The notes: generated from the letters alone by a model not told the origin. A stretch of 64,000 nucleotides of DNA from Gemmatimonadota bacterium (GCA_020344015.1 CP070812.1:2740126-2804125), one strand, 5' to 3'. Shown: positions 14,329 to 57,535, counted from the first letter of the stretch. Program-made: numbers and translations.

Positions 14329-14595
14329 CTCGCTTTGTGACGATTGACGACATCGGATGTCTAAGTGACCCGCGAGGCCCGGCTTGCGAAATCTGGCGCG
14401 ATCCCTCAACCGGCCGCAATATACGTAACTGCGCGCAGATCGCTGCAAAACCGGGGCCGCCGAGGGCCCCGATCGACGGCACTCTCCCCCGCCGTCCGGC
14501 CGAGGCTGACCGCTCGGGTGAACCGTATCCGAGCCCGCCGGTGTAGAAGAGAGCTGGCCGGATACCGTCACCGCACCAGGCACCAGCAAGATCCA

Positions 14596-35642: not shown

Positions 35643-38042
35643 CTAACTGGCGTCGGGCCCCGTGCCGAGGAGCCGCCCGACCTCCCTCACCATCGCCGCT
35701 GGAGCGAACGGCTTGCCTATTACCTGGGCGCGCAGCGACCGGATCGCCTCCAGTGCCTCGGCCGTTTGGTGTCCCGTGATCACGATCGCCGGGACGTCGA
35801 GGAGCCTGGGGTCTTCTCGGAACTCGCGCAATACCTCGAGCCCATCCTTCTCCGGGACCTCAAGGTCGGTGAGCAGAATATCGGGAGGCCTTTGCCGTGC
35901 GAACTCCACGGCCCGCGCGCCGCTGGCTACCTCGAGGCAGGCGAACCCCGCGCGCCGGAGACCGCGGGCCACGGCCAGGCGAACCGTGGGATCGTCCTCG
36001 ATCAACAGAACGACACGGCGTCGCGGGCTCGAGATCAGGCGTGCCGCTTCGGCCACCAGAGCGTCCGGATCGCCGGCGATCCAGCCGTCGGCGCCGTAGG
36101 CTATCGCCTGGTTCAGATCGCCGCCCGGACCCGTCAAAAGGACCGGGATGTCGACCGTGGCCGGCGCGCTCCTCAGCCGCCCCACGAACTCCAGCCCGTG
36201 TATGTCCTCGAGTTCCAGCCCGGCCAGCACGAGGTCGACCCCCTCCGCCCCCAGAATCTCCAGCGCCTCCGCGCCGCGCGCCGCGTCCCGCACCTCCCAA
36301 CCCTCATCCTCGAGCTGGGCCCGCAACAGCTGCTTGAGGTCCGGATCCCTTTCCAACAGCAGCGCCTTCTTCGGGCCTGCCGGGGCCCGCGGCGTCTCCT
36401 CCTCCGCCCTCGGCTCACCGTAGGCGAGGCGTAGGCGAACGAAGAACCTCGAGCCTTCACCTTCCTCGCTCTCTGCCCACAGGTCGCCGCCAAAAGCTTC
36501 GACTATCGCCCGGCAGATGGCGAGCCCCAGGCCGGCACCGCCGTGCGAGCGCGTCGCCGAACGCTCCAGCTGCCGGAACTTCTCGAAGACCTCCTCCAGT
36601 TGATCCGCCGGGATGCCCGGCCCTTCGTCCGTGATCCGCAACACCGCCTGCTCGCTCTGTCTCCACCAAGCCAGGCGAACACGCCCGCCGGCCGGAGAGA
36701 ACTTCACCGCGTTCGACAGCAGGTTGACGATCACCTGCTGAAGACGATCGGCGTCAGCTACGACCAGCGCCTCGGGATCCGACTCCTCCTGCTCGATGCT
36801 GACACCCTGTTCCTCGGCGAACGCCTCCACTGCATCGATCGCGCGAGCGGCCGCTTCGTCTATTGCGATCGGCTCCAGCTTCGTCACCACCAGACCGCTC
36901 TCGATCCGCGAGAGATCAAGAAGATCGTCGACCAGCCGGATGAGACGATCGAGGTTACGCAGAGCGATCTCGAGTAGTCCGTAAGTTTCCTCGGAGACCT
37001 CGCCGGCCGCTCCTCGCGTCAGAAGGTTGAGCGAGGTCTTGACCGACGTGAGCGGGGTGCGCAGCTCGTGACTCACCAGCGACACGAACTCGCTCTTGCT
37101 CGCCTCCGCCTCGGCCTCCGTGGTAACGTCGCGATAGACTACGATCTGCCCCAGCACCTCGTCTTCCGCTCCGCGAACCGTGGCCACCGTCCGCTGGCAG
37201 ACAAGCTTGCGCGGGAACTCGAACTCCACCCGATCGCGCAACGGCGCGCCGCCACTCCGCAGTGCGGCAACCTGAGTCGTCAGCGCCTCCGGGTTGGCGA
37301 ACGATCGTGCCAGCACCCGGTTCACCTCTTCCAGCGAGCCGCCGACAATCACCTCCTGCGGCAGGCCGAGAAGCTCGGCCATCTCCCGGTTGGCGTAGGC
37401 GACCCGATCGTCGCTCACCATGAGAATCGCCGCATCGCTCGCATCGATCAGCGATTCCAACCGTGAACGTTCCGACTGGACGCGCACGTGCTCGCGCTCC
37501 AGCGCCTCGCGCTGTGCCTGAATGGTGGCGAGCAGTCGCGAGTAGTAGAGGGAAGTGGCAAGCTGCCGTCCCAGTAGAACCGCGAGCTCCAGGTCCTCGT
37601 CGCCATAGGTCGCCGACACTTCCGCGCCGAAGTTCAGCGTCCCGATGACCTCGTCGCCCACCTCGAGCGGCACTATCAGTGCCGAGACGTTATGCTCGCT
37701 GCCCGTCCGGATACCCTCGGTTCCTTCGAACGCGTCGACGAGGATCGCCTCGCCGGTCCGGATCGCCTGGCCGGTGAGTCCCTGCCCGATCGGAAACGTC
37801 AGCTCTTGCTTGACGAACCCGCCCAGCGCTTCGTCGTACAGCGTGTGGAGGTGGTAGGACTCGAGATCATAGGACACGAGGACTACGCTGGCACGCCTGA
37901 ATTGCAATACCTGCCGGATCTTGAGGATCGCCGTCTGGAAGATCTCGTCGAGATCGAAGGTGGTGTTGATCAGCGAGGCCAACTCGGCCACGACCTCGAG
38001 CCGCTTGGCCCAGAGGCTGCGGGCTTCCTTCTCAGGGCTCAT
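35643..38042 (-). CDS. Cytoplasmic hybrid histidine kinase (GAF-PAS-HisKA-HATPase-pseudoREC-REC)
   Basis: [35 protein letters not shown]1 has VLAGLE (Asp replaced by Gly), REC2 has ILLTDLEVP. No TM helix seen. Confidence 0.93.
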
Positions 38043-38416
38043 CAGACCGCGTCACCCTCGACTCGTTCCACATAACGCTGCACCGCCCCCTCCAGCTCTT
38101 CCAGGTGCCGGTAAGCAGCTTTGACCTCGAGCGGATCGAGCTCGCCGTCCTCGAGCCAGCGCAACCCCACGTCGGCCAGGCCCTTCGCCGGTTCGACCAG
38201 CTCGTCCGCCTCGAAGGATGCCGCCGTCCCCTTGAGAGTGTGAGCGGTCCGGTAGAACGTGTCTGCCGCACCGGCATCATAGCCGGCGGCCAGCCGCTCG
38301 AGCGCCGACCGTATGGTGTCGGCGCGGCCCGCCAGCCCATCACGGAACTCGCGGTATACTTCAGCCAGCAGCTCGTCGGGGCTCTTACCCTCGTCGGCCA
38401 TCGGGCACATCGTCAC
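38042..38416 (-). CDS. Stand-alone Hpt phosphotransfer protein
   Basis: AHTLKGTAASF motif. Alternative start at 38401. Confidence 0.9.
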   Translation of the reverse strand: MTMCPMADEGKSPDELLAEVYREFRDGLAGRADTIRSALERLAAGYDAGAADTFYRTAHTLKGTAASFEADELVEPAKGLADVGLRWLEDGELDPLEVKAAYRHLEELEGAVQRYVERVEGDAV

Positions 38417-38796
38417 GTCCCTTCGCCTGCGCTCAATGCGAGCAACTTCTCCGCCAACTCGTCGGGCTCGAACGGCTTGAACACCACGCCGGCGACGTCC
38501 AGTTCCCTCACCCGCTCCGCATCGAGCTCTTTGCGGGCGGTCAGGAAAACCACCGGGATTCTCGCGGTCTCCGGATCACCCTTCAGCCGCTCGCACACCT
38601 CATAGCCATCCATCCCGGGCATCATGATATCGACCACAGCGACGTCCGGCTTGTGCGTCCGCACCGCTTCGATCCCTTCGGCGCCGTCGGCCGCCACCTC
38701 CACTTCCCAACCTGCCGTGAACTCCAGCGTCAACTTGACTAGCTTGCGGAGGTCGGGATCATCGTCGACCATGACGACCCGGAATGAGGTTTCCAT
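38413..38796 (-). CDS. Single-domain response regulator (CheY-like)
   Basis: VVMVDDD, VVDIMMPGMDG, FLTA, KPF. Confidence 0.93.
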   Translation of the reverse strand: METSFRVVMVDDDPDLRKLVKLTLEFTAGWEVEVAADGAEGIEAVRTHKPDVAVVDIMMPGMDGYEVCERLKGDPETARIPVVFLTARKELDAERVRELDVAGVVFKPFEPDELAEKLLALSAGEGT

Positions 38797-38875
38797 CGGC
38801 ACCCAGCGGTTTGCGGCGGGGAGGAGAGGAGAGCTAAACTTGTAACTTCAGCAACGATTGGTAAATATTGCATTG

Positions 38876-40258
38876 ATGATACCGAAAGTCTACATCCTCG
38901 ACGACGATCTCACCTACGCCAAGCTGCTGGCGGCCAATCTGGGCAAAGTCGGCAGGTTCCGAAACGAGGTCTTCGACAACTACCAGGCGCTGTTCGACCG
39001 GCGAGCCGAGGAACCGCCCGACGTAGTGATAACCGACCTCGTCATGCCGGGGCTCAGCGGTATCGAGGTGACGCGCCGGCTTAGGCAATCGGACCCTCAT
39101 CTGCCGATCTTCGTGCTCACCGCCCACGCCGACCTCGAGACGGCCATCGAGGCGCTGAAGGCCGGCGCCGACGAATACCTCACCAAGCCCGTCAACATGG
39201 AGGAATTAACCACCCTCCTGAGCCGGGCCCTCGAGGAAAAGCCGCTCCGTGAGGAAGCCGCCTCGATCCAAAAGGTCCGCCAGGAGGAATTCTCGCTCCG
39301 CGCCATCCTCGGCGATCACAAACTGATCGAGGAGGTCCGGGCGTTCGTGGGGCGAGTCGCCGAAATACCGCGCCCGACGGTGCTGCTGCTCGGCGAGAGC
39401 GGGACCGGGAAGAACCTGGTGGCGCGCACCATCCACTACTCGAGCGCACATTCCGCCGGCCGCTTCGTCGAGATCAACTGCTCGGCGCTACCCTCGCAAC
39501 TCCTCGAGGCCGAGCTGTTCGGATACCAGAAGGGAGCCTTCACCGACGCCCGTGAGTCGAAGCGCGGCCTGATCGAGGTCGCTGACGCGGGGACCCTCTT
39601 CCTCGACGAGATCGGTGATCTGTCGAAAGAGCTTCAGGCCAAGCTGCTCAACTTCCTCGAGTCAAGACGGTTCCGCAGGCTCGGCGGTACCGAGGAGATC
39701 GAAGTCAGCCAGCGCATCATCACCGCCACCAACCGCGACCTCGAGTCACTGGTCAAGAAAGGCGAGTTCCGCACCGACCTCTACTATCGGATCAGCGTCG
39801 CCACTCACTCACTGCCACCGCTACGCGACGTCAAGAGCGACCTGCCGCTACTCGCCGAGCATTTCCGCGACTTGTTCAACGGCGAATTCCGCAAGCAGGT
39901 CGAGCGCATCAGCCCCGCCGCCCTCGCGACCCTCGAAGCGTGGGACTGGCCAGGCAACGTGCGAGAGCTCAGAAACGTCATCGAGCGCGCCATGATCTTC
40001 GCCGACGCCTCCGAGCTCACTCCTCACGACCTGCCCGAGCTCGGCTCCCTCGAGGTCGCCGAGGGGCTGGAAGCCGACGACGGCGACTCCTTCAGAGTGC
40101 CCAGCGGCCTCACCCTGGCGGAAGCCGAAAAGGTGTACATCCAGAGCACCTTGGATGCATGTGAGAACAGCGTGCAGCGCGCGGCCGAAACCCTCGGCAT
40201 CTCTCGCAAGAACCTCTGGGAAAAACGCAAGAAATACGGCCTACTGGAGAACCAGTAG
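38876..40258 (+). CDS. Sigma54-dependent response regulator (REC-AAA+-Fis HTH; NtrC/AtoC family)
   Basis: ITDLVMP, GESGTGK, GAFTDA, LFLDEIG, ATNRDL, WPGNVREL, LGISRKNL. Confidence 0.96.
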   Translation: MIPKVYILDDDLTYAKLLAANLGKVGRFRNEVFDNYQALFDRRAEEPPDVVITDLVMPGLSGIEVTRRLRQSDPHLPIFVLTAHADLETAIEALKAGADEYLTKPVNMEELTTLLSRALEEKPLREEAASIQKVRQEEFSLRAILGDHKLIEEVRAFVGRVAEIPRPTVLLLGESGTGKNLVARTIHYSSAHSAGRFVEINCSALPSQLLEAELFGYQKGAFTDARESKRGLIEVADAGTLFLDEIGDLSKELQAKLLNFLESRRFRRLGGTEEIEVSQRIITATNRDLESLVKKGEFRTDLYYRISVATHSLPPLRDVKSDLPLLAEHFRDLFNGEFRKQVERISPAALATLEAWDWPGNVRELRNVIERAMIFADASELTPHDLPELGSLEVAEGLEADDGDSFRVPSGLTLAEAEKVYIQSTLDACENSVQRAAETLGISRKNLWEKRKKYGLLENQ

Positions 40259-40268
40259 ACGGTGGTCA

Positions 40269-40320
40269 GTAGCCGGTAGTCGGTGGGCTGCCAGCCGCCG
40301 GCCACCGGCCGCTGGCTACC
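40269..40320 (+). terminator. GC-rich imperfect hairpin after the activator gene
   Basis: gtagccggtagtcggtgg pairs imperfectly with ccaccggccgctggctac, in ~7-nt units. Confidence 0.45.
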
Positions 40321-40458: not shown

Positions 40459-40533
40459 GTAACACGTCCAGTTACCGTTTGGTAACAACGGGTTCCGTCC
40501 CGGATCGACTTCCCCAGCGTAACCTGCTGTTAT
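40459..40533 (+). promoter_or_regulatory. Putative upstream activator sequences (GTAAC/GTTAC half-site cluster)
   Basis: GTAAC-N7-GTTAC-N6-GTAAC at 40459-40486, plus a further GTAAC at 40519. Same architecture recurs at 49036. Confidence 0.6.
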
Positions 40534-40557
40534 CTAACGAGTTAACCAGTGCGCCCA

Positions 40558-40575
40558 CTCGGCACGACTCATGCC
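40558..40575 (+). promoter_or_regulatory. Putative sigma54 -24/-12 promoter of the giant surface protein
   Basis: CTCGGCACGACTCATGCC has GG(40561)-N10-GC(40573), matching TGGCACG-N4-TTGC, ~100 nt before ATG 40672. Confidence 0.7.
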
Positions 40576-40671
40576 GCCATGAGCCGTGGTGAGGTGTGTG
40601 CCCACGTCCAGGTTCGACGGGGTCACTCCGTGGCAAACACCCCGCGGGCCGGGGGTTTTAGAGGCGTCGGA

Positions 40672-43600
40672 ATGGAAGACAGATTTGGATCACAGGTCAG
40701 CAGCGCCGCCGTCGGGGGCGAGGGCAGAGCCCCTGGCGAACGCGTGCCGCGCCGATCCGGCTCGCTCGGCCTGAAGAGGATCACCCTCGCCCTCGCCGCG
40801 GGCGTCTCGCTGCTCACCCTGCCCGGGGCAGCACTCGGCCAGGGTTGGTACGATCCCGATTGGGGCTATCGGAAGAAGATCACGATCGACAACACGATGG
40901 TGGCCGGCGACCTCACCAACTTCCCTGTTCTTCTCGACTTCACCGACACCGATCTCAGAGACAAGGCGCGCAACGACGGTTGGGACATCCTCTTCACCGA
41001 GGACAACGGCACGACCAAGCTCGACCACGACTTCGAGGACTATGACGGCTCGACGGGCGCAATAATCGTCTGGGTGGAGGTAACGAATCTCTCCGGGAGC
41101 GTCGACACCGACATCTACATGTACTACGGGTACGCCACCGTACCATCCAACCAGGAGAACGAGACCGGGACGTGGGGGAACGGATACGAGGCTGTCTACC
41201 ATCTACACAACAACAGCTTCGCGGATGCGACGGGTAATCACACCGCGACGAACAGTGGCTCGGCCAATGCTACCGGCATAGCCGGCGACGGGCGCAACTT
41301 CCTTCGCAGCGAAGACGATTACATCGACACGGGTTGGAACCCGAGCCTGACCGGCGACTTCAGCTTCGAGGGTTGGTTCCGGGCGCTTGGCCAGAGCGGC
41401 AGTGGCGATGTCTGGGGCGTTGAGGATCGAGGCGGCGGTGACAACTCGGAGATCCGTCTGGCGATTCGCGACACCGACGCCAACAACTCTGCCGACGGCT
41501 ACAATCTAGAGATCAAGGCCGATGCAGCAGGAGACATAAGCGACGAAGGCCCACTACCCGGCGACCCCGACGACGGCAACTGGCATCACATTGCCCTGGT
41601 ACGGGAAGGTTCGACCGGGCGCCTGTACTACGATGGCAGCTACATCACTCTGAACGACAGCCTCACCACTTCAGGCACCGCCGGCTTCCCAGTCAGCCTA
41701 CTGATGGGCGCACAGTGGGACACGGATGGCGGCGGCCCCCCCGCAGTCCGCAACCGCCTGAATGGCGATCTGGACGAGACCCGTGTCTCGACGGTACTGA
41801 GAACAGGAGACTACTTCGCCACCCAGGTCGCCAACGTCAACAACAGCGCGCCCGGCGGTTTCTACGACTTCCTCAGCGGCGAGGAGTTAACCGGCCTGAT
41901 CGGGCACTGGAATTTCAACGAGGGCAGCGGCCAGGTCGCAGCCGACGCCTCGCCCAGTAACAACGACGGTACCCTCGGACCGACTGCCGGCGTGGAGAGT
42001 GGTGACCCGACCTGGACCTGCAGCGGCACCGCCCTCGAGTTCGACGGCATCGACGATGAGGTCAAGCTCTCCAACGTAACCATCGGCGACAGGGCCGCCT
42101 GGTCGATTAGTGCCTGGATCAAGATGGGTCCCGATGCGGCGGACAAACGAACCATTTACGGTGAAGGCGATACCACGCAAAGGGAGTATCTCTACCTGGA
42201 CGTAGCTGAGGCCGGCTCTTACGTCACATTCTATTCTGAGGACTCCCCCGGAAGCGTGTACACCGAGCTCAACGGCACAACGAACGTAGAAGACGATACG
42301 TGGCACCTGGTCACCGTGGTACAGCGCTCGAAGACCGACCGGGTGCTATATGTCGATGGTACTCCCGAAGATAGCAGTACCCAAAACGCCGGGACGCTCG
42401 TCTTCAACACAGCCTCCATCGGCTACCTGAGATCCGAAGGCTGGGTTGCGGATCCGTTCCTGGGAACGATCGACGACGTCCGCATCTATGACTACGCCCT
42501 GAGCACGGCCGAAATCGCCACTCTTAACGCCAACCCTCCCGGCGCTTGCGGAGCTGCTGCCGGCGACGTGGTGATGATGGTGGTCGCCAACGCCGCCACC
42601 CGCGACCTGGTCGATGACAGCCTCGCGGCCTATCTGCAGACCCAAGGGCTAACGGTCGTCTTCGCCGACGACGACGATACCCGGGCCACCTACGACTCCA
42701 TCGTCGCCGCAGATGGTGTCGACGTGATCTACGTCTCGCCGACCTCCGGCTCGGCCGCTATCGGCACCAAACTGTACGACATCGGCACCGGCCTCGTGAT
42801 GTCGAACCGGGGTAACTGGGACAACTTCGAGCTGAGTGCCAACGACAACGAGGACAGCGGCACCACCACAGAGATCGTCGACAATACACACTTCATCACC
42901 CAGCCGTTCTCAACAGGCCTGTTGACGATCAACTCGGTCTCTGATTTCAGAGGCTGGGGGTCGGGTGGGTTCGGCGCCGGCGCCCAGCTGCTCGCGCAGT
43001 ATCCAAGCGATCCCACCCGAGCGATGATCCTCGTCTACGAAGCGGGGGCGCTATTGCAGAACGGCCAACCGGCCGTGGCGCGGCGCGTCGGCATGTACGT
43101 CGAGACGGAAACCTGGAGTAACTACACCGCCGACACGAAGACGCTGATCTACCGGTCGATCCTCTGGGGCGGCGGCCTCGCCGGCGCCCCCGGCGGCGAC
43201 GCCGTGACCTCAGCGGTGGCCGAGATATCGCCCAACGATGTCACGACCAACGACACCGGCATCGAGTTCATCTACGCGATACTCGCCACTATCGGCGGCA
43301 CCGACACCGGCGTCGATCGAGTCACGATCACCGTTCCCAACAGCTTCGGGCTTCCCACAGTCGATAGCGTCCGCGTCGGCGGCACGGCCGTGACGTATAC
43401 CAACAACACGGCGGCACGGCTGACGAGCTTCGACCTCGACACCAAGCTCGCCAGCACCGACAGCATCCAGGTCTACTTCACGGCCGACGCGCCGACCGCG
43501 CCGGACGCCACCGGTCAGGACTTCACCTCGACTGTCGATGACTCGGGAACCGGCGCGGCAGCTCAGTCGACGACCGAAGGCAGCGCCGACGGCGACGCGG

Positions 43601-46600
43601 GCGACAACAACGACTGGACCGTGACGACCACGGACAGCGGTGGAAGCGGGCCCACGCCCCCCGGCGGAATCTGTCCGGCGGCAGATATCGTCAGCACCGG
43701 ATCGACCATCACCAACGAGATGAAGATCCAGCACACCACATCGGCGGGCCCCGACAGGTTGATGCTTGTTGGCGTGTCCATCAACAACGACGACTCAGCG
43801 GATACGGTGATATCAGTCACCTACAACGGCGCCGGGCTCTCGCGCATCGGAACGGTACAGAACGCCGATGATGCCCGGGTCGAGATCTGGCAGCTCGTAA
43901 ACCCGCCGGCTCTGAGTGACACCGTCACCATCACTTTCGGCAAGGACCTTCTACGGAGCGCCGTTGCCGGCGTGATCACCTTCGCCGGCGCCGACCAGAC
44001 TCCCATCGCCGACTTCTACGGCGACTTCGCCGACGGTACGACCTCCAGCGTCACCGTCACCTCCGCCGCTGGCGAGATGGTATTCGCCCTCATGTCGGGT
44101 GAAACGACGGGCGTGCCGACGCTCCAGAACAGCCCGCCGGCGATCGAGCGCTGGAACCTGCTCGAGGCGGGGGCCCCGCCTGAGGAGTACGGCGCGGCCG
44201 CCACGGACAGCGGCGCCGCACCGAACGTCACGGTTAGCTGGACACACGGCAACGACCACTGGGCGGCGGGGGGTGTTTCGATAGTGCCAGCAGCCGCGTG
44301 CCTCAACGCCGCGCCCAGCATCTCGTCGGCGGCGGACCAGACCTTCCAGGTCGGAGACCCGACTACTGCCGCCTCGACCATCATCATCGCCGAAGACACG
44401 CTCTACCAGACGATCACTGACACCACCGACCTGCGTGTCCGCATCCCCGCGGGTCTCGACATGATCTGGGACACGCTGCAGGCCACCATCGTCGTCGGCG
44501 GCAACGCCTCCTCAAAGGTCAGCACCACGGTCAGCTACGAGGACGCCGGCAAGACCGCGGTGATAGATGTAACTACGAGCTTCGCTGCGCTCGACACGAT
44601 CACCGTCGACAGCCTCAAGTTCATGGACTTCGGCTCGGTCTCGGCAGCCGACAGCCTCGAGCTCGAAGTCAAGAACGACGGCCTCGTCTCCGCAGTCGAC
44701 GACAAGACCAAGGAGATCACCGCCGCCTCCAGTCCCACGATTCTCGGCCGCTACTGCTTCAACGAAGCGGCAGCCGATTCGAGCCCGTCGCAGGTACTGG
44801 ACGACCAGGCGAACCCGCTCCACCTGGGCATCACCTACAACGGGATGTCGTGGACGGAGCTGAGCGGAAACCGCGGTCTGGGCGCGGCGACGCATTCGGG
44901 AATCGCGAGCGCCGATGCGGCCGGCTCCAAGTACCCGACGAACCTCGACGGGGCCCTGCAGGCCACGCTCGTCGCAGTTACCGAGTGGACGGGCGGGAAC
45001 GGCGATCGAGTCGCGGGCTTCGTGGAAAGTGATGGGACCCGCATCTTCTTCCTGCTGACGAATGACGCCCCGGGCATCGAGCTTCGCATGCAAACCCAGT
45101 CCCGCAATATCCGGGCGGTGTGGTTCGGTCCGTGGGACGATGGCACGCGGCGCGTTTTCCACGCCGTCTACGATGCCCCCAACGCCACGCAAACGAAGCG
45201 TATCCGTCTCTACGTGGACGGCGCCGACCAGGGAGAGCCCGACCAGTGGGTCGCCGGAACCTGGCCCGACCAGACCGAGGGTCTGGACTTTAGCCCTGCA
45301 ACCGTCAGGGTCATCTCGCTGAACGAGCCCGCCCTCAGCAACCCACTGCCCGGGCACGTCTTCTACTTCGCCGTCCATGACGCGGCGTTCACTGACTCAG
45401 ATGCGTCCTCGTCCGCCACAGCGCTGCTCGTCGACGACGATTGCGGCGCCGTCGGCACCCCGGCCGTTACGTCGGCCACGGCCGAAATCGAACCCAACGA
45501 CGTGGCGACCGGCTCCACGGCGAACGAGTTCGTCTACGCGATCCTCGCCACGATCAGCGGCTCAGCCACCGGCGTCGACAGCGTAGCGATAACGGTCCCG
45601 GCCACTTTCGGCGATCCCACGGTTGACAGCGTCAGGGTCGGCGGCACTGCGGTGACGTACACCGACAACACAGCGGGCAGACTGATCAGCATCGTCCTGG
45701 ACACCAAGGTCTCCAGCACCGACAGCATCCAGGTCTATTTCGCCGCCGACGCACCAGGCTCGGCCGACCCGACGGGCCAGGACTTCACCTCCGCGGTTGA
45801 CGACACGAGCACGTCGGAGCTTCCCCAGACCACGACCGAGGGCAACGCCGACGGCGATGCGGGCGACAACAACAGCTGGACGGTGACGACCACGGACGCC
45901 TCCGGGGCCACGCTGCTCGGCCGCTACTGGTTCAACGAGGCGCCCTCGGGACAGACGCCGACCACGGTCTACGACGACCAGCCAAGTCCGGTCAACCTGA
46001 CCACCATCGTCTACGACACGCCGGTGGAGTGGACAGTAGTCAATGATCATCGCGGCCTAAACGGCGCTTCGGACCCACACTCAGGGATCGCCTACGGGAC
46101 CGCTTCGGGCACCAAGTACACGACCAATCTCGATGGTGCGCTAGAGGCGGCTTTCGTGGCGGTGGCCGAGTGGGCGCCCGCCGCCGGCAGTCAGCGCATC
46201 GCCGGTTTTGTCAGGTCCGGCGGTGCCCGAGTTGCCGAGCTCGTACCAGCGTCAGTCGGCGGTTTGAGTATCCGAATAATGACACAGGCACAGTCCATAA
46301 CGGCGCGGTGGCCCAGTGTAGCGAGCGATTCTACACGGCGAGTGTTCCACATCGTCTACGACGCCGACCACCCTGTTGATAGCCTACGGATCCGGCTGTA
46401 CGTGAATGGATCCCTTATGCCGGCCCCCACACTGGACAGTGGAACGTGGCCTGACCCAACCGACGGGTTGGACTTCAGCGCCGCCGACATCTTGCTGACG
46501 GCGGTCAACAACACCCCCGGCGACGCGACCAACCCGCTCAACGGCACGGTGTTCTACTACGCCGTCTACGCCGGCGCGCTTACCGATTCGGAGATCTCGA

Positions 46601-48894
46601 CAAACGCCACGGCGCTGCTCGCCGACGACGACAACATCACGCCGTCCGTCGCGGTCACGCCCGACGGGCTCGGCGCGCCGATCTTGCGGCAGGCGGGCAC
46701 CGACTACAGCTACGAGTTCGTCGTAGAGAACACCTCCAGCGTCCTGGACGACTACGACCTCCTGGCGAGCACCGATCCAGCCTCATCGTTCGTCAGCGTC
46801 GACTCGATCACCTTCAACGGCCTGAGCTTCACCTCGCCGCCCGACAGCGCGCTGCTCGTCGGCCTGGCCGCCGGTGTCTTTGACACGATCACGGTCTGGT
46901 ACACCGTGGCCAGCGATACCGACGGCAATGTCGATACGCTATACCTCGCCGGCCGCTCGGTGACCGAGGCCGCTGCAATAGACAGCGGCTACGTCGAGAT
47001 CGAGTACGACGTGCCGGTCGCGGGGACCCCGCTGGTCCGCTACTGGATCGACGAGGCGCCGAGCGGACAGGGCGTGGCGAATCTGATCGACTCGGAGTCG
47101 AACCCGATCAGCATGCCACTCACGTACGTCGACTCGATCCCGTACTTCGCCGGTGACCACGGCGGCTACCGCCACCTGCGATTCAACGGCCCGGACAACA
47201 CCGATACCGGCGGCGGCCTGGTAGACGTGGGCGGCACCAAGATGGACGGGGTCCACGGCTCGACGGTCGTCACGATCGAGGCGAAGTACGCCTTCGAGCC
47301 GGGCAGCGCCTGCACCGGTCAGGACGAGCGGATATTCGGAATCTCCGAGGATCGCGGTAGCGCTTACGGGCAGCTGCAGGTCCGCGGAATATCCGGCGCG
47401 CACACCCTGTCAGTCATGTGGGCCGGCGTCGGGACCGTCTACAGATACGGTCTGACCGGTGGCTGTAACCTGACCAGCGCCTCGGTGGTTCACTGGGTCG
47501 TAGACACCAACGAGGCCACGGACTCCGACCGCGTTCGGGCCTACGTCGGCGGCGTCCGCCAGACGGTCACCGTCCAGACCGGTGCCTGGCCTTCAGCTGG
47601 GGCGACTATCGACCTCGGGGCCGTGGGAACGCGAAAGATGTACGTGGGCCGTCCCTACTCCGGGCTAGCGACGATGAAAGGCAGGATCTGGTACGTCGCG
47701 CTATACCTGGGCGAGATGTCCGACGCCCAAATCGCGTCCAACGCATCGGCCCTCGCCTCGTCGGACGATACCAACACTTATGCGGCCACGGTCACTCCCG
47801 ACGGCGCGTCCGTCATGCGACTGGCCGGCACCGACTACAGTTACGCCTTCACGCTGAACAACGGTTCGAGTGTGCTCGAGGATTTCGACCTCTTGGCCAG
47901 CACCGACCCGGCCTCGTCGTTCATCACGATCGACTCGATAACCGGCGGCGGCATAAGCGATAGCGGCGTGGCTGATAGCACGCGCATCTACGGTGTCGAC
48001 GCGAGCGCCGATAGCACGGTCACCGTCTGGTACACGGTAGCGGCCGACACCGATGGCAACATCGACACGCTCTATCTCAGGGGCCGCTCGATCTCCGACA
48101 CGGCGCAATCGGACCTCGGCTGGATACAGATCGAGTACGAGACGATGGCGTTCACGGTCGCGCCCGACGGCGCCGACACCCTACAGCTCATGCCGACCGG
48201 CACCGCCGCCTCGTCGTCGTACAAGTTCACGATCACCAACAATTCAGCGTTGAGTGAGACGTTCGATCTGCTCGCCTTCGACGGCGCCGTTTTGACCGTC
48301 GACTCGATCACCGGACCCAACGTGAGCGGTGGCTCGCCCGGCGACAGCGCCCGCACCGGCGCCATCGCGGCGAGCGCCGAGGACAGCGCCTTCGTCTGGT
48401 TCACCATATCGGTCGGCACCGCCGGCGCCCTCGATTCTCTCTACCTCATGGGCCGCTCGGTGGGTGACCCCTCGGCCACCGACTCGGGTTGGGTATTCGT
48501 CGAGCTGCTGCAGCCGGATCTGGTGACATCGAAGGTCGCCAATCCGAACGGCACGCAGCCACCGGGCACCGACCTGACGTACACGCTGACGATCACGAAC
48601 AACGGGACGGCGGATGGAGTGAACGTGGTGACCGTCGACTCGCTGGCTGCGGAGGTCTACTTCCAGGTCGGCAGTGTCGTCACGACGCTGCCCGGCGGCA
48701 TGACCGACAGCATCGAATACTACGACGGTTGCGGCAGCGACGGCTGGAGCTACACGCCGGTCTCGGGCGGCGGTGGTGCACCCGCCGGCTACGATGCCTG
48801 CGCTGTCCGAATCCGCTGGACGTTGCTGAACGACTTCAGCTACGTCGCACCGAACAACACCGCAGACCTGGAGTTCGTCGCGAGAATAAAGTGA
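40672..48894 (+). CDS. Giant secreted surface protein (~2740 aa): DUF2341, LamG/concanavalin-like repeats, Ig-like repeats, C-terminal DUF11
   Basis: Signal peptide ending PGAALG|Q; WYDPDWGYRKKITID (DUF2341-like); GHWNFNEGSG...IDDVRIYDYALS (LamG); three repeat families; TSKVANP...YTLTITNNG...DSL (DUF11). Confidence 0.9.
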   Translation: MEDRFGSQVSSAAVGGEGRAPGERVPRRSGSLGLKRITLALAAGVSLLTLPGAALGQGWYDPDWGYRKKITIDNTMVAGDLTNFPVLLDFTDTDLRDKARNDGWDILFTEDNGTTKLDHDFEDYDGSTGAIIVWVEVTNLSGSVDTDIYMYYGYATVPSNQENETGTWGNGYEAVYHLHNNSFADATGNHTATNSGSANATGIAGDGRNFLRSEDDYIDTGWNPSLTGDFSFEGWFRALGQSGSGDVWGVEDRGGGDNSEIRLAIRDTDANNSADGYNLEIKADAAGDISDEGPLPGDPDDGNWHHIALVREGSTGRLYYDGSYITLNDSLTTSGTAGFPVSLLMGAQWDTDGGGPPAVRNRLNGDLDETRVSTVLRTGDYFATQVANVNNSAPGGFYDFLSGEELTGLIGHWNFNEGSGQVAADASPSNNDGTLGPTAGVESGDPTWTCSGTALEFDGIDDEVKLSNVTIGDRAAWSISAWIKMGPDAADKRTIYGEGDTTQREYLYLDVAEAGSYVTFYSEDSPGSVYTELNGTTNVEDDTWHLVTVVQRSKTDRVLYVDGTPEDSSTQNAGTLVFNTASIGYLRSEGWVADPFLGTIDDVRIYDYALSTAEIATLNANPPGACGAAAGDVVMMVVANAATRDLVDDSLAAYLQTQGLTVVFADDDDTRATYDSIVAADGVDVIYVSPTSGSAAIGTKLYDIGTGLVMSNRGNWDNFELSANDNEDSGTTTEIVDNTHFITQPFSTGLLTINSVSDFRGWGSGGFGAGAQLLAQYPSDPTRAMILVYEAGALLQNGQPAVARRVGMYVETETWSNYTADTKTLIYRSILWGGGLAGAPGGDAVTSAVAEISPNDVTTNDTGIEFIYAILATIGGTDTGVDRVTITVPNSFGLPTVDSVRVGGTAVTYTNNTAARLTSFDLDTKLASTDSIQVYFTADAPTAPDATGQDFTSTVDDSGTGAAAQSTTEGSADGDAGDNNDWTVTTTDSGGSGPTPPGGICPAADIVSTGSTITNEMKIQHTTSAGPDRLMLVGVSINNDDSADTVISVTYNGAGLSRIGTVQNADDARVEIWQLVNPPALSDTVTITFGKDLLRSAVAGVITFAGADQTPIADFYGDFADGTTSSVTVTSAAGEMVFALMSGETTGVPTLQNSPPAIERWNLLEAGAPPEEYGAAATDSGAAPNVTVSWTHGNDHWAAGGVSIVPAAACLNAAPSISSAADQTFQVGDPTTAASTIIIAEDTLYQTITDTTDLRVRIPAGLDMIWDTLQATIVVGGNASSKVSTTVSYEDAGKTAVIDVTTSFAALDTITVDSLKFMDFGSVSAADSLELEVKNDGLVSAVDDKTKEITAASSPTILGRYCFNEAAADSSPSQVLDDQANPLHLGITYNGMSWTELSGNRGLGAATHSGIASADAAGSKYPTNLDGALQATLVAVTEWTGGNGDRVAGFVESDGTRIFFLLTNDAPGIELRMQTQSRNIRAVWFGPWDDGTRRVFHAVYDAPNATQTKRIRLYVDGADQGEPDQWVAGTWPDQTEGLDFSPATVRVISLNEPALSNPLPGHVFYFAVHDAAFTDSDASSSATALLVDDDCGAVGTPAVTSATAEIEPNDVATGSTANEFVYAILATISGSATGVDSVAITVPATFGDPTVDSVRVGGTAVTYTDNTAGRLISIVLDTKVSSTDSIQVYFAADAPGSADPTGQDFTSAVDDTSTSELPQTTTEGNADGDAGDNNSWTVTTTDASGATLLGRYWFNEAPSGQTPTTVYDDQPSPVNLTTIVYDTPVEWTVVNDHRGLNGASDPHSGIAYGTASGTKYTTNLDGALEAAFVAVAEWAPAAGSQRIAGFVRSGGARVAELVPASVGGLSIRIMTQAQSITARWPSVASDSTRRVFHIVYDADHPVDSLRIRLYVNGSLMPAPTLDSGTWPDPTDGLDFSAADILLTAVNNTPGDATNPLNGTVFYYAVYAGALTDSEISTNATALLADDDNITPSVAVTPDGLGAPILRQAGTDYSYEFVVENTSSVLDDYDLLASTDPASSFVSVDSITFNGLSFTSPPDSALLVGLAAGVFDTITVWYTVASDTDGNVDTLYLAGRSVTEAAAIDSGYVEIEYDVPVAGTPLVRYWIDEAPSGQGVANLIDSESNPISMPLTYVDSIPYFAGDHGGYRHLRFNGPDNTDTGGGLVDVGGTKMDGVHGSTVVTIEAKYAFEPGSACTGQDERIFGISEDRGSAYGQLQVRGISGAHTLSVMWAGVGTVYRYGLTGGCNLTSASVVHWVVDTNEATDSDRVRAYVGGVRQTVTVQTGAWPSAGATIDLGAVGTRKMYVGRPYSGLATMKGRIWYVALYLGEMSDAQIASNASALASSDDTNTYAATVTPDGASVMRLAGTDYSYAFTLNNGSSVLEDFDLLASTDPASSFITIDSITGGGISDSGVADSTRIYGVDASADSTVTVWYTVAADTDGNIDTLYLRGRSISDTAQSDLGWIQIEYETMAFTVAPDGADTLQLMPTGTAASSSYKFTITNNSALSETFDLLAFDGAVLTVDSITGPNVSGGSPGDSARTGAIAASAEDSAFVWFTISVGTAGALDSLYLMGRSVGDPSATDSGWVFVELLQPDLVTSKVANPNGTQPPGTDLTYTLTITNNGTADGVNVVTVDSLAAEVYFQVGSVVTTLPGGMTDSIEYYDGCGSDGWSYTPVSGGGGAPAGYDACAVRIRWTLLNDFSYVAPNNTADLEFVARIK

Positions 48895-49035
48895 TGTGCT
48901 CCGGGTCACCCCCCGGCCCGGAAGAAAACCTCCCGCCACACACCCCGCCGGAACGAGCGCCTCCCCCGCGTGAGACCGGATGAACGGAGTAGCAACCGAC
49001 GTGGTCGAAGCGGCCCGGTCAGTCCTGCGACGGAC

Positions 49036-49111
49036 GTTACCGGGGCCGTTACTCACGGGTAACCGCCGAGGGCGTCACGCCCGCGGCCGGGGACTGGCCT
49101 GTCCCTGTAAC
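49036..49111 (+). promoter_or_regulatory. Second putative UAS cluster
   Basis: GTTAC-N7-GTTAC-N6-GTAAC at 49036-49063, plus GTAAC at 49107. Confidence 0.6.
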
Positions 49112-49156
49112 CCAATACAATACATCATCTTAGCCGATTCGAATCAAACCGGGCCT

Positions 49157-49174
49157 ACAGGCATGGAGCCTGCT
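49157..49174 (+). promoter_or_regulatory. Putative sigma54 -24/-12 promoter of the DUF11/OmpA operon
   Basis: ACAGGCATGGAGCCTGCT has GG(49160)-N10-GC(49172), followed by RBS AGGAGA and ATG 49218. Confidence 0.7.
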
Positions 49175-49217
49175 TTTCATTGGTCCGGCGTCCCCCGCCC
49201 TGAACTAGGAGACTCAC

Positions 49218-49418
49218 ATGCTTCTCAGGTGCCCACACTGCAGTCGATCTGGAGAACACGTACGCAGCGACTTCTTCGGCGATTGGGTCGTCTGCTCGGT
49301 TTGCGAGCTGCCCTTCGCCTGGCGCGAGGCGCGCTCCGAGTCGGACTCGGAGGGCGGCAACGGCAACGGGCGATCGTCGATCCAGCCACACGCAACACGG
49401 ACCCGCAACGACAGGTAA
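49218..49418 (+). CDS. Small zinc-ribbon protein (CxxC-x17-CxxC), 66 aa
   Basis: MLLRCPHC...WVVCSVCELPF, strong RBS, stop 5 nt before the next ATG. Confidence 0.7.
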   Translation: MLLRCPHCSRSGEHVRSDFFGDWVVCSVCELPFAWREARSESDSEGGNGNGRSSIQPHATRTRNDR

Positions 49419-49423
49419 CCACC

Positions 49424-49972
49424 ATGACAACCAGTTGGCGTAATGCCGCGACCGTGACGGCGGCGGCAGTTCTACTGCTATGCCCCCCCGCGTCGGCACA
49501 GGAGAGCGAGCAACCGAAGGCGTTGGTCATCACGGCCGAGAACCTGATGGCGGACGATGCCACCCACCAGGAGATAGCGAGAGAGGGTGGCGATCCAAAC
49601 ACGGTGCTCCCCGGCGACGTCATCCTCTATCGCCTGACATTCACGAACACCACCGAAGTCCCGGTCCGCAACGTCGAGTTCAAGGACCCGATCCCGACGG
49701 GCTTCCACCTCCTGATCGAGTCCGCGACGGCCGATCGGGATGACGTGGTGGTCACCTACTCGATCGACGGCGGCCAGGTCTATTCGGCCGAGCCGATGAT
49801 CGAGGAAGTGGTCGACGGCGAGCGCCTGACCCGCCCGGCGCCGCCAGAACTGTTCACCCACATCCGCTGGCTGGTGACGGGCTGGGTTCAGCCCGGCGCT
49901 CAGGTCACAGCGGAATTCCGCGCACAGCTACCCGCTGCTGACGCGCCCGAGGAGCCCGGCGAGCCCAACTGA
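49424..49972 (+). CDS. Small secreted DUF11 (conserved repeat domain) protein
   Basis: Signal peptide ending PPASA|Q; VLPGDVILYRLTFTN...DPIP; YSIDGG; THIRW. The longer ORF from 48980 covers the promoter, so the start is set at 49424. Confidence 0.88.
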   Translation: MTTSWRNAATVTAAAVLLLCPPASAQESEQPKALVITAENLMADDATHQEIAREGGDPNTVLPGDVILYRLTFTNTTEVPVRNVEFKDPIPTGFHLLIESATADRDDVVVTYSIDGGQVYSAEPMIEEVVDGERLTRPAPPELFTHIRWLVTGWVQPGAQVTAEFRAQLPAADAPEEPGEPN

Positions 49973-51310: not shown

Positions 51311-54300
51311 ATGAGGCTCCTCGGCGTCATGGCGGGTAAAGGGCACGAGCCCCACGGTGATCGGAAGGTCGCCTTGGGGCTCTGCGTCCTTTTCTGCCTG
51401 ATTCTGGCACCCGAAGCTTGGGCGCGAGGGACACCGGCTGGCACCCAAATCCAAAACCAAGCGACAGTTAGCTACCAGGCCTCCAACGGATTCACGTTCA
51501 ACCTGGTCTCCAACACGGTCACCCTCACCGTCGGACAGGTGGCGGGTGTCGACCTGGAGCCACCGCGGAACAGCGTGGCCAATCCGGGGGTCACGGTACT
51601 CTTCAGTCACACGCTAGAGAACATCGGCAACGGGACCGACAGCTTCGCCCTGAGCGCGATCTCGCAGGCGGGCTGGACGACGCGCATCTACCTCGACGCG
51701 AATGGGGATGGCGCGCTGGACGCCGGTGATTCGCAGATCGTAGGCCCCATCACTCTGGCGGCCGACGACACCGTATACATCCTCGTTGCGGTAGACGTAC
51801 CGGGTTCGGCGACGGTCCGCGGGACAACCGATCTCGTCGACGTGCAGGCCACCAGTCAGTTCGACGGCTCGGCGACCGATGCGCTCCAGGATGTCATCGA
51901 CGTCCCGAGCGTTGGAATCACCGCGAGCCTCACAAAGATCGTCGATCTCGGAAGTGCGATGGTCGGCGATGTCCTCACATACACGATCAACTACAGCGGG
52001 GTTGGCCCGAACACCGCGACCAACTTCCAGACCTTTGATCCTATCCCGCTGGGTACGACCTACGTGCCCGGCACGATGCAGTGGAACGGCACGCCGATAA
52101 CCGACATCACCGGCGACGACGAAGGCTACTTCGACGGTGTGGCGAACCTCGTCGTCTTCCAGTTGCCGACGATCGCAGGCGGCGATGCCGGTACGTTCTC
52201 GTTCCAGGTCCGCGTCGACGGGCCTAACGACCCAACCACCGTGGCCGCGGCGACCTACGAGACGATCGCAGGCACCGACTCGGTCGCGTCCAACGTCGTG
52301 ACAACGACTCTCATCCAACCCGAACTCAGCATTCAGAAGCTGCTGAACAGCGCCAACATCGCCTATGTCGGCGATCAGGTAAGCTACACGCTGCAGTACG
52401 CCAACTCGTCAGCGTCGGTCGTCGCTCAGAGCGTCGAAGTGAGTGACACCCTGCCGACGGGTCTCGATTTCGTATCCGCCGTGCCGGCGCCGACGGCAGT
52501 GAACGGCCAGGTCCTCACCTGGACGATCGGCGACGTCAACCCCGGCGAAAGCTTCGACATCCAGCTCACCGCACAGGTCAGCGACATCGTGCGCGACACG
52601 ATGACGGTCACCAACATCGCGGTGATGGCTGCGCTGAACGCTACCGCCCAGGAGCTAGCACTCTCCCAGGCGGTCCAGCTCGTCGGACTACTCGCCGACC
52701 AACTGACGCTCGACAAAGCCGCCGACGTAATCGAGGTCGGCATCGGCGAAGTCGCGCCTTACACGCTGGCCGTAGAGAACAACGGACTAGTCGCGCTTTC
52801 CGATGTCCGTGTCCACGACAGGCTGCCAAACGGCACCGTCTACTCGGAGGGCAGCGCGACCGGTGTCGACTCGGTGCAGGTCGACGGACGCAGAATCACC
52901 TTCTTCTACGCGGGGCCCATCGACCCCGGCGACACGCACTACATCCACTACGCGATCGCGGTCGTGTCCGCCGCCGAACCGACGCTGGCCAACGTTGCCT
53001 ACGCCACCGCCGAGAACGACTTCGTCAGATCGGAGGACGTGACAGCCTGGGTCCGTGTGCGCAACGCCTATCCGCTCGAGACACGCGTCGCGATCGGAAA
53101 GGTCTGGATCGACCTGAACGACAACGGCGGCCAGGACCCCGGCGAGCCCGGTCTACCCGGCGCCGACATCTGGACCGACGACGGCGATGTCGCCAGCTCC
53201 GACAGCGACGGGAAGTTCTCGTTCAGGAATCTGCGCTCCGGGCGCCACGCCTTCCGGCTCGACCCGGCGACGATACCAGCCGGCTATCGGCTAGCAGGGA
53301 CCAGTGCTTCGGAGGACCTGATCACCCTCAACGCCGACGGCTGGACGACACCGCGGATCAATTTCCGCCTCGTCCCGCTCGAGACGACATTGTCCGAGGT
53401 CCACCTGCCCATCAGCTGGCGCTTCGCGGCCCGTCCGCTGTGCGCGAGCCTCGACGAGATCTTCCCCACCGCGGAAGGTGACCGTGCGACGCTCACCCAC
53501 TTCGAGACGAACAGCGCGAACCTGCAGGACGGCCAGGCCCTCGCTCAGCGCGTCGCCCTCGCGCTCGCCAATAGGCCCAGGTGCCGTGTCGAGCTCACTG
53601 GACACGCCGACCCACGCCCCGTGCGAGGCGGCCCGTACTTCAGCAACCTGAACCTGTCACAGGCGCGAGCCGATTCGGTTCGCGGCGCATTGCAGGCCTC
53701 GGGCCTCGACAACAGCATCAGCATCCGCGCCCTCGGAGCGACGGATCTGGTGGCGGAAGGGGATGATCCTTACTCGCTCTGGCTCAACCGTCGCGTCGAA
53801 CTGCGTTTGAGCGGGCCCGAGAGCAATGCCCTCTCGCGGCCGGTGGTCGAGTACGACGTCCTGATCACCAACGAGTACGACGTGGCGCTCTCCGGCCTCG
53901 CCATCCGTTTCGTGCCGGCGGCCGACTCGGTGGTCCTCATAGTCGACGACTCGGTCCAGCTCAGCCTGTACGGCCACCCCACCGTCCTGCCGCCCATCGA
54001 TCCGTACTCGCGCGTGACGCTGCGCGCCTGGACGGTCTCGGGCGCCGACTCGGCGGTCGCCGTGCTCGAGCGAAACGAGCGCTCCAGCGGCTGGCTCGCC
54101 GCCGCCGTGCACAACTACACGATCCCGGTCAGCGGCACCGATGACGTCCACGCTGTCGCTGACAGGCTGCCCAGCCCCAGCAAGCTGCCGCCGGGAACTA
54201 GTGTCGAGATCGTCTTGCTGCCCGCACCGGCAGGCTGGCCGGAAGCGACTTACTCGCTGCCCGAGGGCTGGAAGCTGGTCGAGGGCTCGGTCACGGTCGG

Positions 54301-57300: not shown

Positions 57301-57535
57301 TGAGGGCCGCCTCTTACTCGAACACAACACCAACACTCAACGCTGGGACGCCGCACCCTCGCTCGTCCTCATCCCGATCGAAGGATTCGAGGTCCAGGCG
57401 GGCTACCGCTTCGGCGACCTCCGCGACCCGGACTTCGCGGTGCGCGGCGGTGACGGTTGGTTCGCCGTCTTCAGCGCGCGGCTGACCGAGACCGTGTTCC
57501 CCACCTCGGCCGATTTCTGGCGCCACCGCTTCTAG
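51311..57535 (+). pseudogene. Large outer-membrane protein (DUF11 x3, SdrD-B-like, OmpA-like, Ig-like, C-terminal beta-barrel) interrupted by in-frame TAA at 56810-56812
   Basis: ORFs 51311..56812 and 56852..57535 are in the same frame and read DAP*RLSARGEYRDG across the stop. OmpA motifs GHAD, LSQARA, NRRVE. Terminal Phe. Could be a real nonsense allele or a sequence error. Confidence 0.8.

Follow-up and report, generated by a model that had tools for sequence, protein, structure and literature searches.

Two predicted sigma-54 promoters of shared design beside an NtrC-family activator gene in a Gemmatimonadota bacterium

The closest described counterparts of the control regions considered here are sigma-54 promoters served by enhancer-binding proteins. 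AioR, the NtrC-family activator of aioBA in Agrobacterium tumefaciens GW4, Herminiimonas and Rhizobium NT-26, binds a 16-bp palindrome, GT[TC][AC][CG]-N6-[..]AAC, as demonstrated by electrophoretic mobility shift assay and DNase I footprinting on GTTCGGATTTCCGAAC (PMC5335332). CbrB of Pseudomonas acts at the crcZ, crcY and PP2810 promoters through half-sites TGTTAC/GTAACA, with three subsites per promoter, and activation is dependent on IHF, whose site lies between enhancer and promoter (PMC6296734). The classical systems NtrC/glnAp2, NifA/nifH and XylR/Pu combine palindromic sites ~100-130 bp from the start, several of which nucleate an activator oligomer, with an intervening IHF bend, dependence on the helix face and a GG-N10-GC promoter. 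Here we describe two regions of this general layout in a 64-kb stretch of a Gemmatimonadota bacterium genome (CP070812.1:2740126-2804125; hereafter the window, with positions counted from its first letter). One precedes a gene for a giant secreted protein and the other an operon of zinc-ribbon, DUF11 and OmpA proteins, and the gene of an NtrC-family activator stands next to the former. Gemmatimonadota are abundant in soils and sediments, and in the literature we searched there was no described transcription-factor regulon for this phylum. The parts that carry the argument are the following; L numbers designate loci outside the window.

38876-40258, plus strand: NtrC-family enhancer-binding protein with receiver domain (REC), AAA+ sigma-54 interaction domain with a GAFTDA loop, and HTH_8; recognition helix GISRKNLWEKRKKYGLL
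40459-40486, plus strand: putative enhancer (upstream activating sequence, UAS) 1, GTAACA-N6-GTTACC-GTTT-GGTAAC; three half-sites with centre-to-centre distances of 12 and 10 bp; unit shared with L001 and L002
40519-40545, plus strand: central element 1, GTAACCTGCTGTTATCTAACGAGTTAA; IHF-like; 32 nt past the palindrome, its TTA starting 19 nt before the GG
40561-40574, plus strand: predicted sigma-54 type -24/-12 promoter 1, GGCACGACTCATGC; predicted start ~40586
49036-49063, plus strand: putative enhancer (UAS) 2, GTTACC-N6-GTTACT-CACG-GGTAAC; orthologous unit in L003
49107-49133, plus strand: central element 2, GTAACCCAATACAATACATCATCTTAG; IHF-like; 43 nt past the palindrome, its TTA starting 30 nt before the GG
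49160-49173, plus strand: predicted sigma-54 type -24/-12 promoter 2, GGCATGGAGCCTGC; predicted start ~49185

AioR recognises a palindrome of the form found here, and the two palindromes of the window agree with its motif at the half-site positions. Moreover, the activators near aioB in L130 and L163, apparent AioR orthologues, end in KISRKNLWEKMKRHNI, the same recognition helix as that of the window's protein. AioR differs in its target (arsenite oxidase instead of surface proteins), in its sensor (AioX/AioS instead of a cytoplasmic GAF-PAS phosphorelay) and in overall identity, which is only ~34-36% and across phyla; in addition, the aio loci show no conserved third half-site. CbrB has the REC-AAA+-HTH architecture of the window's activator and half-sites with the same GTTAC core, whereas its subsites run F1, R1, R2 in place of forward-forward-reverse and its role is carbon catabolite regulation. 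Abdou et al. 2011 reportedly found the CbrB forward and reverse half-sites N12 apart, compared with N4-N6 here. The classical activators share the layout given above; they differ in their DNA motif, in the contact loop (GAFTGA, against GAFTDA here), in the -12 element (TTGC, against C-N-TGC here) and in their targets, which in the window are large secreted proteins with DUF11 and Laminin_G domains. The design is the classical one of enhancer, IHF and sigma-54; what is new is the tripartite motif, seen in a little-studied phylum in which the design is conserved to an unusual degree.

A sequence-only reading of this DNA had reported GTWAC-N7-GTTAC-N6-GTAAC together with GG-N10-GC at both sites, and every coordinate it gave is correct. 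At site 1, GTAAC (40459-63), N7, GTTAC (40471-75), N6 and GTAAC (40482-86) are followed by an additional GTAAC at 40519-23 and by the promoter letters cGGCACG-ACTC-ATGCc (40560-40575; GG 40561-62, GC 40573-74). Site 2 consists of GTTAC (49036-40), N7, GTTAC (49048-52), N6 and GTAAC (49059-63), with its additional GTAAC at 49107-11 and the letters aGGCATG-GAGC-CTGCt (49159-49174; GG 49160-61, GC 49172-73). GG and GC are exactly 10 nt apart in both cases, within an extended match to TGGCACG-N4-TTGCW. The palindrome centres, said to lie ~82 and ~104 bp upstream of the GG, were measured at 82.5 bp (site 1) and 104.5 bp (site 2) upstream. Each site has a 16-bp palindrome plus a third half-site, within the ~80-150 bp upstream of a promoter that characterise a UAS.

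We confirmed that the paired sites are real and far from chance. GTTAC-N6-GTAAC with at most one mismatch occurs at two places only in the 64 kb, both of them the sites above; since shuffled sequences, with a mean of 0.41, reach two in 7/100 cases, this count is not decisive by itself. GTWAC has a frequency of ~1 per 1.1 kb, yet site 1 packs four copies into 65 bp and site 2 the same number into 76 bp. From relatives alone, with the window excluded, we built a 28-bp enhancer matrix; it scored site 1 at 30.0 bits and site 2 at 25.6 bits, and no further match of at least 8 bits was found on either strand of the window (128 kb of strand). A promoter matrix from relatives gave 12.6 bits for promoter 1 and 18.5 bits for promoter 2. 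Comparison within the window revealed no extended repeat linking the two regions, and a promoter scan predicted no sigma-70-like promoter in the intergenic stretch before the giant gene or before the DUF11 operon. The pattern GGCAYG-N4-HTGC occurs three times in the window, the third time within an open reading frame of 1745 codons. Further GG-N10-GC matches at 9941 (plus strand, 14.1 bits) and 13486 (minus strand, 10.9 bits) lie in this minus-strand frame (9487-14724); being inside a reading frame and without an upstream enhancer, they are probably chance occurrences.

Orthologous loci from ~27 Gemmatimonadota genomes, in which the activator is 63-96% identical, were scanned over 471 kb in total. 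The palindrome is situated 33-213 bp past the activator stop in most of these loci, and a second copy follows in many of them, another 1.4-3.4 kb downstream; each copy precedes a -24/-12 element by 87-116 bp. For every exact palindrome in the 471 kb (25/25) there is a -24/-12 element downstream, ~85-135 bp from where the palindrome begins; among random 50-nt windows the frequency of such an element is 0.54%. The proposal that both elements would be sigma-54 promoters with the palindrome as enhancer thus draws comparative support from these 25 palindromes, and a check of orthologous upstream regions for the motif found the palindrome kept there, with the -24/-12 element downstream. In some activator orthologues (L006, L008) the palindrome was not found nearby. 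A scan of a species-genome collection for palindrome plus promoter returned at least 119 stretches, at least 40 of them Gemmatimonadota by their record titles, and several Gemmatimonadota stretches among the matches listed sit on contigs other than that of the activator. A 2011 survey included one finished Gemmatimonadetes genome, and this genome has RpoN (PMC3372290 Table 1).

The pooled Gemmatimonadota set, built partly from the matches listed, comprises 64-66 non-identical units. Their elements follow one another in a fixed order, with the enhancer GTTACC-N6-GTTACC-N4-GGTAAC, a central element with the core CAA-N4-TTA and the promoter GGCACG-N4-nTGC. The upstream third half-site GTTACC, 12 bp upstream of the palindrome and not part of the selection pattern, is conserved at G 91, T 88, T 86, A 79, C 97 and C 76%; the palindrome's four middle bases and the flanking sequence vary freely across units. 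The predicted enhancer is tripartite, and because the half-site centres are 12 and 10 bp apart, all three half-sites would lie on one helix face.

The central element of the pooled units has the consensus c-GTAA-s-y-C..T.....ACAA-N4-TTA. It scores at least 7 in 42/64 units, compared with 0.9 in shuffles, and is recovered in all units by an unguided Gibbs sampler; CAA-N4-TTR is present in 27/64 units, compared with 1.7 in shuffles. The core CAA-N4-TTA matches the best-conserved portion of the IHF consensus WATCAANNNNTTR, and the 5' half is A/T-rich. We infer that the bending protein would be an IHF/HU homologue. The additional GTAAC near each promoter, claimed by the sequence-only reading, is indeed present; instead of being a standard activator half-site, it appears to form the 5' end of this separate, conserved element.

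Palindrome-to-GG distances in the pooled units cluster near 90, 105 and 113 bp. Simple helical phasing of the total distance was rejected, as the 105 class misfits and the groups are not whole turns apart. Splitting the distance at the central element accounts for the 105 class: the palindrome and the central element are separated by 32-33 or 43-45 nt, and the TTA of the element and the GG by 18-22 or 28-32 nt. The window holds the forms 32 + 19 (site 1) and 43 + 30 (site 2). An offset of two turns between the sites had been noted, and it does amount to 22 bp, resolved here into one extra turn of ~11 bp in each arm around the central element. Such quantised arms are a prediction of a rigid enhancer-bend-promoter geometry, and the arrangement resembles that of IHF-dependent sigma-54 promoters, those served by CbrB among them (PMC6296734).

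The activator matches Pfam families PF00072 Response_reg (1.6e-26), PF00158 Sigma54_activat (4.1e-62), PF25601 AAA_lid_14 and PF02954 HTH_8 (1.5e-12), and its sequence contains Walker A GESGTGK and Walker B DEIG. Its nearest orthologue is 96% identical. The sigma-54 contact loop is GAFTDA, not GAFTGA, and is kept in all orthologues aligned; the same G5-to-D change occurs naturally in FlgR, a functional activator, and is regarded as permitting activity (PMC3162934). NCBIfam equivalogs all fell under their cut-offs (AtoC 406.8 against 714, NtrC 357.8 against 558.6), and the protein is, judged by these scores, a generic NtrC-family member without a named orthologue. The PEP-CTERM regulator PrsR was considered as its identity and rejected (NCBIfam score 357.5 against a cut-off of 502.6). 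The top solved-structure match for its helix-turn-helix domain is 7vbs, with helix ISRKVLWEKMRKY.

Genomic position and recognition helix make a strong case that the adjacent activator would be the enhancer's binder. The enhancer lies directly past this activator's orthologue in more than 20 genomes. A cross-phylum test set was formed by the non-Gemmatimonadota palindrome-plus-promoter stretches listed in which an activator C-terminus aligned within the 8-kb piece (n = 17), and the palindrome immediately adjoins the end of many of these 17 activator genes. The recognition helix ISRK[N/T]LW, which the window's activator also carries (GISRKNLWEKRKKYGLL), is present in 17/17 palindrome-linked activators among the matches listed and in 2/57 activator homologues fetched as background by similarity to the window's protein (Fisher's exact p = 7e-15). 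In the Alcaligenaceae loci L130 and L163 the palindrome is exactly GTTACC-N4-GGTAAC and stands ahead of aioB (TIGR02694, above cut-off). Palindrome and -24/-12 element also lie ahead of nrfH/nrfA-type genes in Geobacteraceae, Desulfobulbaceae and others (L083, L085, L118, L131, L150, L193); nrfH and nrfA are both found in the Desulfobulbaceae loci, and the Geobacteraceae nrfA-like gene scores under its cut-off. The activators at the nrfHA loci of Geobacteraceae and Desulfobulbaceae share with the window's protein the site GTTACC-N4-GGTAAC directly past the activator gene, 88-116 bp upstream of the -24/-12 element, as well as the helix GISRK[NT]LW. They differ in that several are without a receiver domain (the alignment starts from residue 118 of the window's activator) and in controlling respiratory genes, namely those of cytochrome c nitrite reductase. 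These observations point to a specificity class, marked by the palindrome and the ISRK[NT]LW helix, that would be common to several phyla and include AioR. A full-text literature search with the motif words returned eukaryotic matches only.

L013 and L021 carry the helix SRKSLW (Asn to Ser) together with several palindromes that have GTTCCC for GTTACC; L011 keeps the Asn yet also has GTTCCC variants, so that co-variation of helix and site is anecdotal. Loci of Actinomadura/Spirillospora (L126, L138, L141, L151, L159, L164, L165) likewise match palindrome plus GG-N10-GC. Actinobacteria are generally without sigma-54 (PMC3162934), and these seven matches look like another conserved element that fits the pattern by coincidence.

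For the operon behind promoter 2, a metatranscriptome contig of a relative spans 49209-49418, and the RNA contigs, few in number, cover the operon from 49209 on with none upstream. Three RNA runs gave no usable contig over site 1, all holders of which are DNA metagenomes. We estimate a probability of roughly 0.8 that both sites are sigma-54 promoters on one plan, with a far-upstream enhancer, a central bend site and a -24/-12 promoter, and with the adjacent activator as binder. Several points weigh against this. The FCB-group homologues L025, L026, L028 and L030 have a nearly identical helix and no palindrome within 10 kb; L032 is the sole FCB-group homologue examined that has one within this distance. 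The pooled units are phylogenetically related, and their counts overstate the independent observations. Both window central elements agree with the E. coli IHF consensus WATCAANNNNTTR at only 6/9 positions. The RNA contigs are short as well as few, of low depth and from relatives, and promoter 2 was also scored as a weak terminator-like hairpin in a terminator scan.

The proposed mechanism would start from a divergently encoded cytoplasmic phosphorelay (GAF-PAS hybrid kinase, Hpt protein and receiver) that phosphorylates the receiver domain of the activator. A dimer of the activator's HTH_8 domains would then bind the 16-bp palindrome GTTACC-N4-GGTAAC, and the third half-site, 12 bp upstream on the same face, may recruit a further subunit and aid assembly of the AAA+ ring. 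At the central element (cGTAA...ACAA-N4-TTA) the DNA would be bent, either by a protein of IHF/HU type or through intrinsic curvature, and the ring would thereby reach the closed sigma-54 holoenzyme complex, where ATP hydrolysis acting via the GAFTDA loop would open the promoter. For the giant secreted protein, transcription is predicted to begin near 40586, and for the zinc-ribbon/DUF11/OmpA operon near 49185; two surface-protein units would in this way be co-induced.

Four other explanations have to be weighed. The promoters and the enhancer could be real and the palindrome be bound by a paralogous activator with the same helix, or by an unrelated regulator, the neighbour acting elsewhere. 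Several activator families with no relation to one another have the ISRK[NT]LW helix, and a paralogue could therefore have the same specificity; the orthologues without a nearby palindrome (L006, L008) also fit this account. We nevertheless consider it unlikely, given that the enhancer directly follows this very activator gene in more than 20 genomes, that the palindrome-linked activators of other phyla are encoded beside the palindrome (17/17 among the matches listed) and that a unit built to this design (L153) does occur in the metagenome-assembled genome of L008, on a different contig. A more open matter is the central element: instead of a place for an IHF/HU bend, it may provide two weak half-sites for the activator, GTAAC and GTTAC at a distance of 23 bp, or serve some other regulator. 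Two half-sites would come near the sequence-only reading. Its ends, (G)TAA(C) and (G)TTA(C), are everted versions of the half-site, and its match to the E. coli IHF consensus is confined to CAA-N4-TTR. Against this, the flanking G/C is conserved at only 39-46%, compared with 91-100% in true half-sites, and positions foreign to the half-site are conserved (T9 75%, A15 63%, A18 74%); furthermore, its position, its A/T-rich 5' half and the whole-turn arms match the known role of IHF at sigma-54 promoters (PMC6296734). We regard a half-site pair or foreign site as possible, with the bend site as the preferred reading.

The terminator scan listed 49158-49181 for its 5-bp stem with four G-C pairs and T-rich tail (CAGGC-ATGGA-GCCTG, then CTTTTC), and GG-N10-GC at this place could be an intrinsic terminator instead of a promoter. 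The element is however 265 bp past the stop of the giant gene and always at a set distance from the enhancer, and orthologous units keep the GG/GC spacing without being self-complementary or having a T-run (GGCACGACCTCTGC and GGCACGCGCCCTGC are examples), which makes a terminator very improbable. As for chance matches, or remnants of duplicated or mobile sequence with no regulatory role, words as short as GTWAC and GG-N10-GC are each frequent on their own. This last explanation is effectively refuted by motif positions kept in dozens of genomes while the intervening bases vary freely, by enhancer scores of 30.0 and 25.6 bits where nothing else reaches 8 bits in 128 kb of strand and by the -24/-12 element found with all 25 palindromes; it is also at odds with the lack of any extended repeat between the two regions.

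On the preferred reading, that of two sigma-54 promoters served by the adjacent activator, the module describes a testable switch: its components are an activator, an enhancer of 28 bp, a bend site and two predicted starts, with a phosphorelay as input. Its targets would be clustered genes for very large secreted proteins, in line with the proposal that sigma-54 governs the cell exterior (PMC3162934). The rule linking ISRK[N/T]LW to GTTACC-N4-GGTAAC, across aioBA, nrfHA and the Gemmatimonadota surface units, could help to predict the targets of orphan activators in metagenomes. The quantised spacers would constitute a natural demonstration of helical phasing around a bend, without engineered constructs. 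The known mechanism of sigma-54 activation is unchanged by these findings.

Three types of unit recur among the Gemmatimonadota examples of the module.

Type A: spacing near 90 bp; ahead of the first gene past the activator, which encodes a secreted protein of variable size
Type B: spacing 100-116 bp; ahead of the zinc-ribbon/DUF11 operon
Type C: spacing 104-106 bp; ahead of a paralogous zinc-ribbon gene followed by that of a DUF5916/CBM9 protein

Type A products share a C-terminal module of ~250 residues with the giant protein of the window. Type C units have GTTCCC or GTTTCC, not GTTACC, as upstream half-site, and GGTAYR replaces GGCAYR at -24. They occur, with the spacing fixed at 105-106 bp, at L086, L088, L095, L101, L112, L135, L152, L153, L154, L168 and L177, and in the complete genome CP070815 the unit is 0.3 Mb from the activator; type C is a form of the module particular to its operon and located apart from the activator gene. 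The window carries types A and B, and type C is seen in its 95%-identical relative L154. Zinc-ribbon paralogues of ~65-85 residues (M[LV]LRCPxC...) lead two operon types (49218-49418 in the window; L152 6806-7063, minus strand; L154 1455-1652, minus strand). That of L152 has a sub-threshold match to Zn_ribbon_9 (E = 0.0099), the ribbon of the FlgZ/DUF164 family, and FlgZ stabilises RpoN in Helicobacter (PMC3372290). All recognisable unit products are envelope or surface proteins, in agreement with the proposal that sigma-54 controls the cell exterior (PMC3162934). A speculative extension, which we find rather doubtful, is that the three-part module forms a regulon widespread in sampled Gemmatimonadota that switches on an as yet undescribed DUF11-based surface-fibre system, the zinc-ribbon protein serving as a dedicated sigma-54/activator cofactor or feedback regulator, loosely like FlgZ.

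The genes downstream of the two predicted promoters are as follows.

40672-48894, plus strand: giant secreted protein, 2740 residues; signal peptide, DUF2341, Laminin_G_3; tblastn match from residue 1 in L137
49218-49418, plus strand: zinc-ribbon protein, 66 residues (MLLRCPHC...CSVC); first gene of the operon; AGGAG 6 nt before the ATG
49424-49972, plus strand: small DUF11-repeat protein; signal peptide; NCBIfam TIGR01451
50018-51292, plus strand: DUF11 protein, 424 residues (Pfam, NCBIfam)
51311-56812, plus strand: protein of 1833 residues; DUF11, SdrD_B and OmpA domains (Pfam)
56852-57535, plus strand: protein of 227 residues; no family match; syntenic in L142

The start of the giant gene was taken as ATG 40672 because GTG 40549 is upstream of promoter 1. 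The predicted 5' untranslated regions measure ~86 nt to ATG 40672 and ~33 nt to ATG 49218. Zinc-ribbon homologues stand immediately past the promoter in 11 loci, and the gene at 56852-57535 is probably the last of the promoter 2 unit. Internal repeats in the giant gene (43182-48711), of 300 nt at 43182/45444 (75% identical) and 157 nt at 46671/47802, are consistent with tandem domain modules. Its leader contains a short G+C-rich hairpin followed by TTTT (CCCCG-CGGGC-CGGGG-GTTTT, 40640-40665) just 5' of the ribosome-binding site; overall the leader folds no better than shuffles (z = 0.59). Neither leader matched an Rfam family at gathering score.

On the other side of the activator, the phosphorelay genes are all divergent from it, and a stem-loop follows its stop codon.

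35643-38042, minus strand: hybrid histidine kinase, GAF-PAS-HisKA-HATPase_c-REC-REC (Pfam); syntenic with the activator by tblastn in L137, L134, L156, L106 and others
38042-38416, minus strand: Hpt phosphotransfer protein (Pfam PF01627, E = 2.1e-9)
38413-38802, minus strand: single-domain receiver, CheY-like (NCBIfam receiver-domain matches)
40261-40320, plus strand: long, nearly perfect stem-loop directly past the activator stop codon; -48.5 kcal/mol, z = -4.0

The hybrid kinase is presumed to be the sensor of the system. A plus-strand open reading frame at 38105-38605 was dismissed as spurious, the genes that occupy this region being those of the Hpt protein and the receiver, on the minus strand. 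For the stem-loop, Rfam yielded sub-threshold matches only, of microRNA/hairpin type. It belongs to ~170 bp of extra spacer; distant relatives are without it and have the enhancer 33-50 bp past the stop. The stem-loop may be a terminator, an insulator ahead of enhancer 1 or an inserted element.

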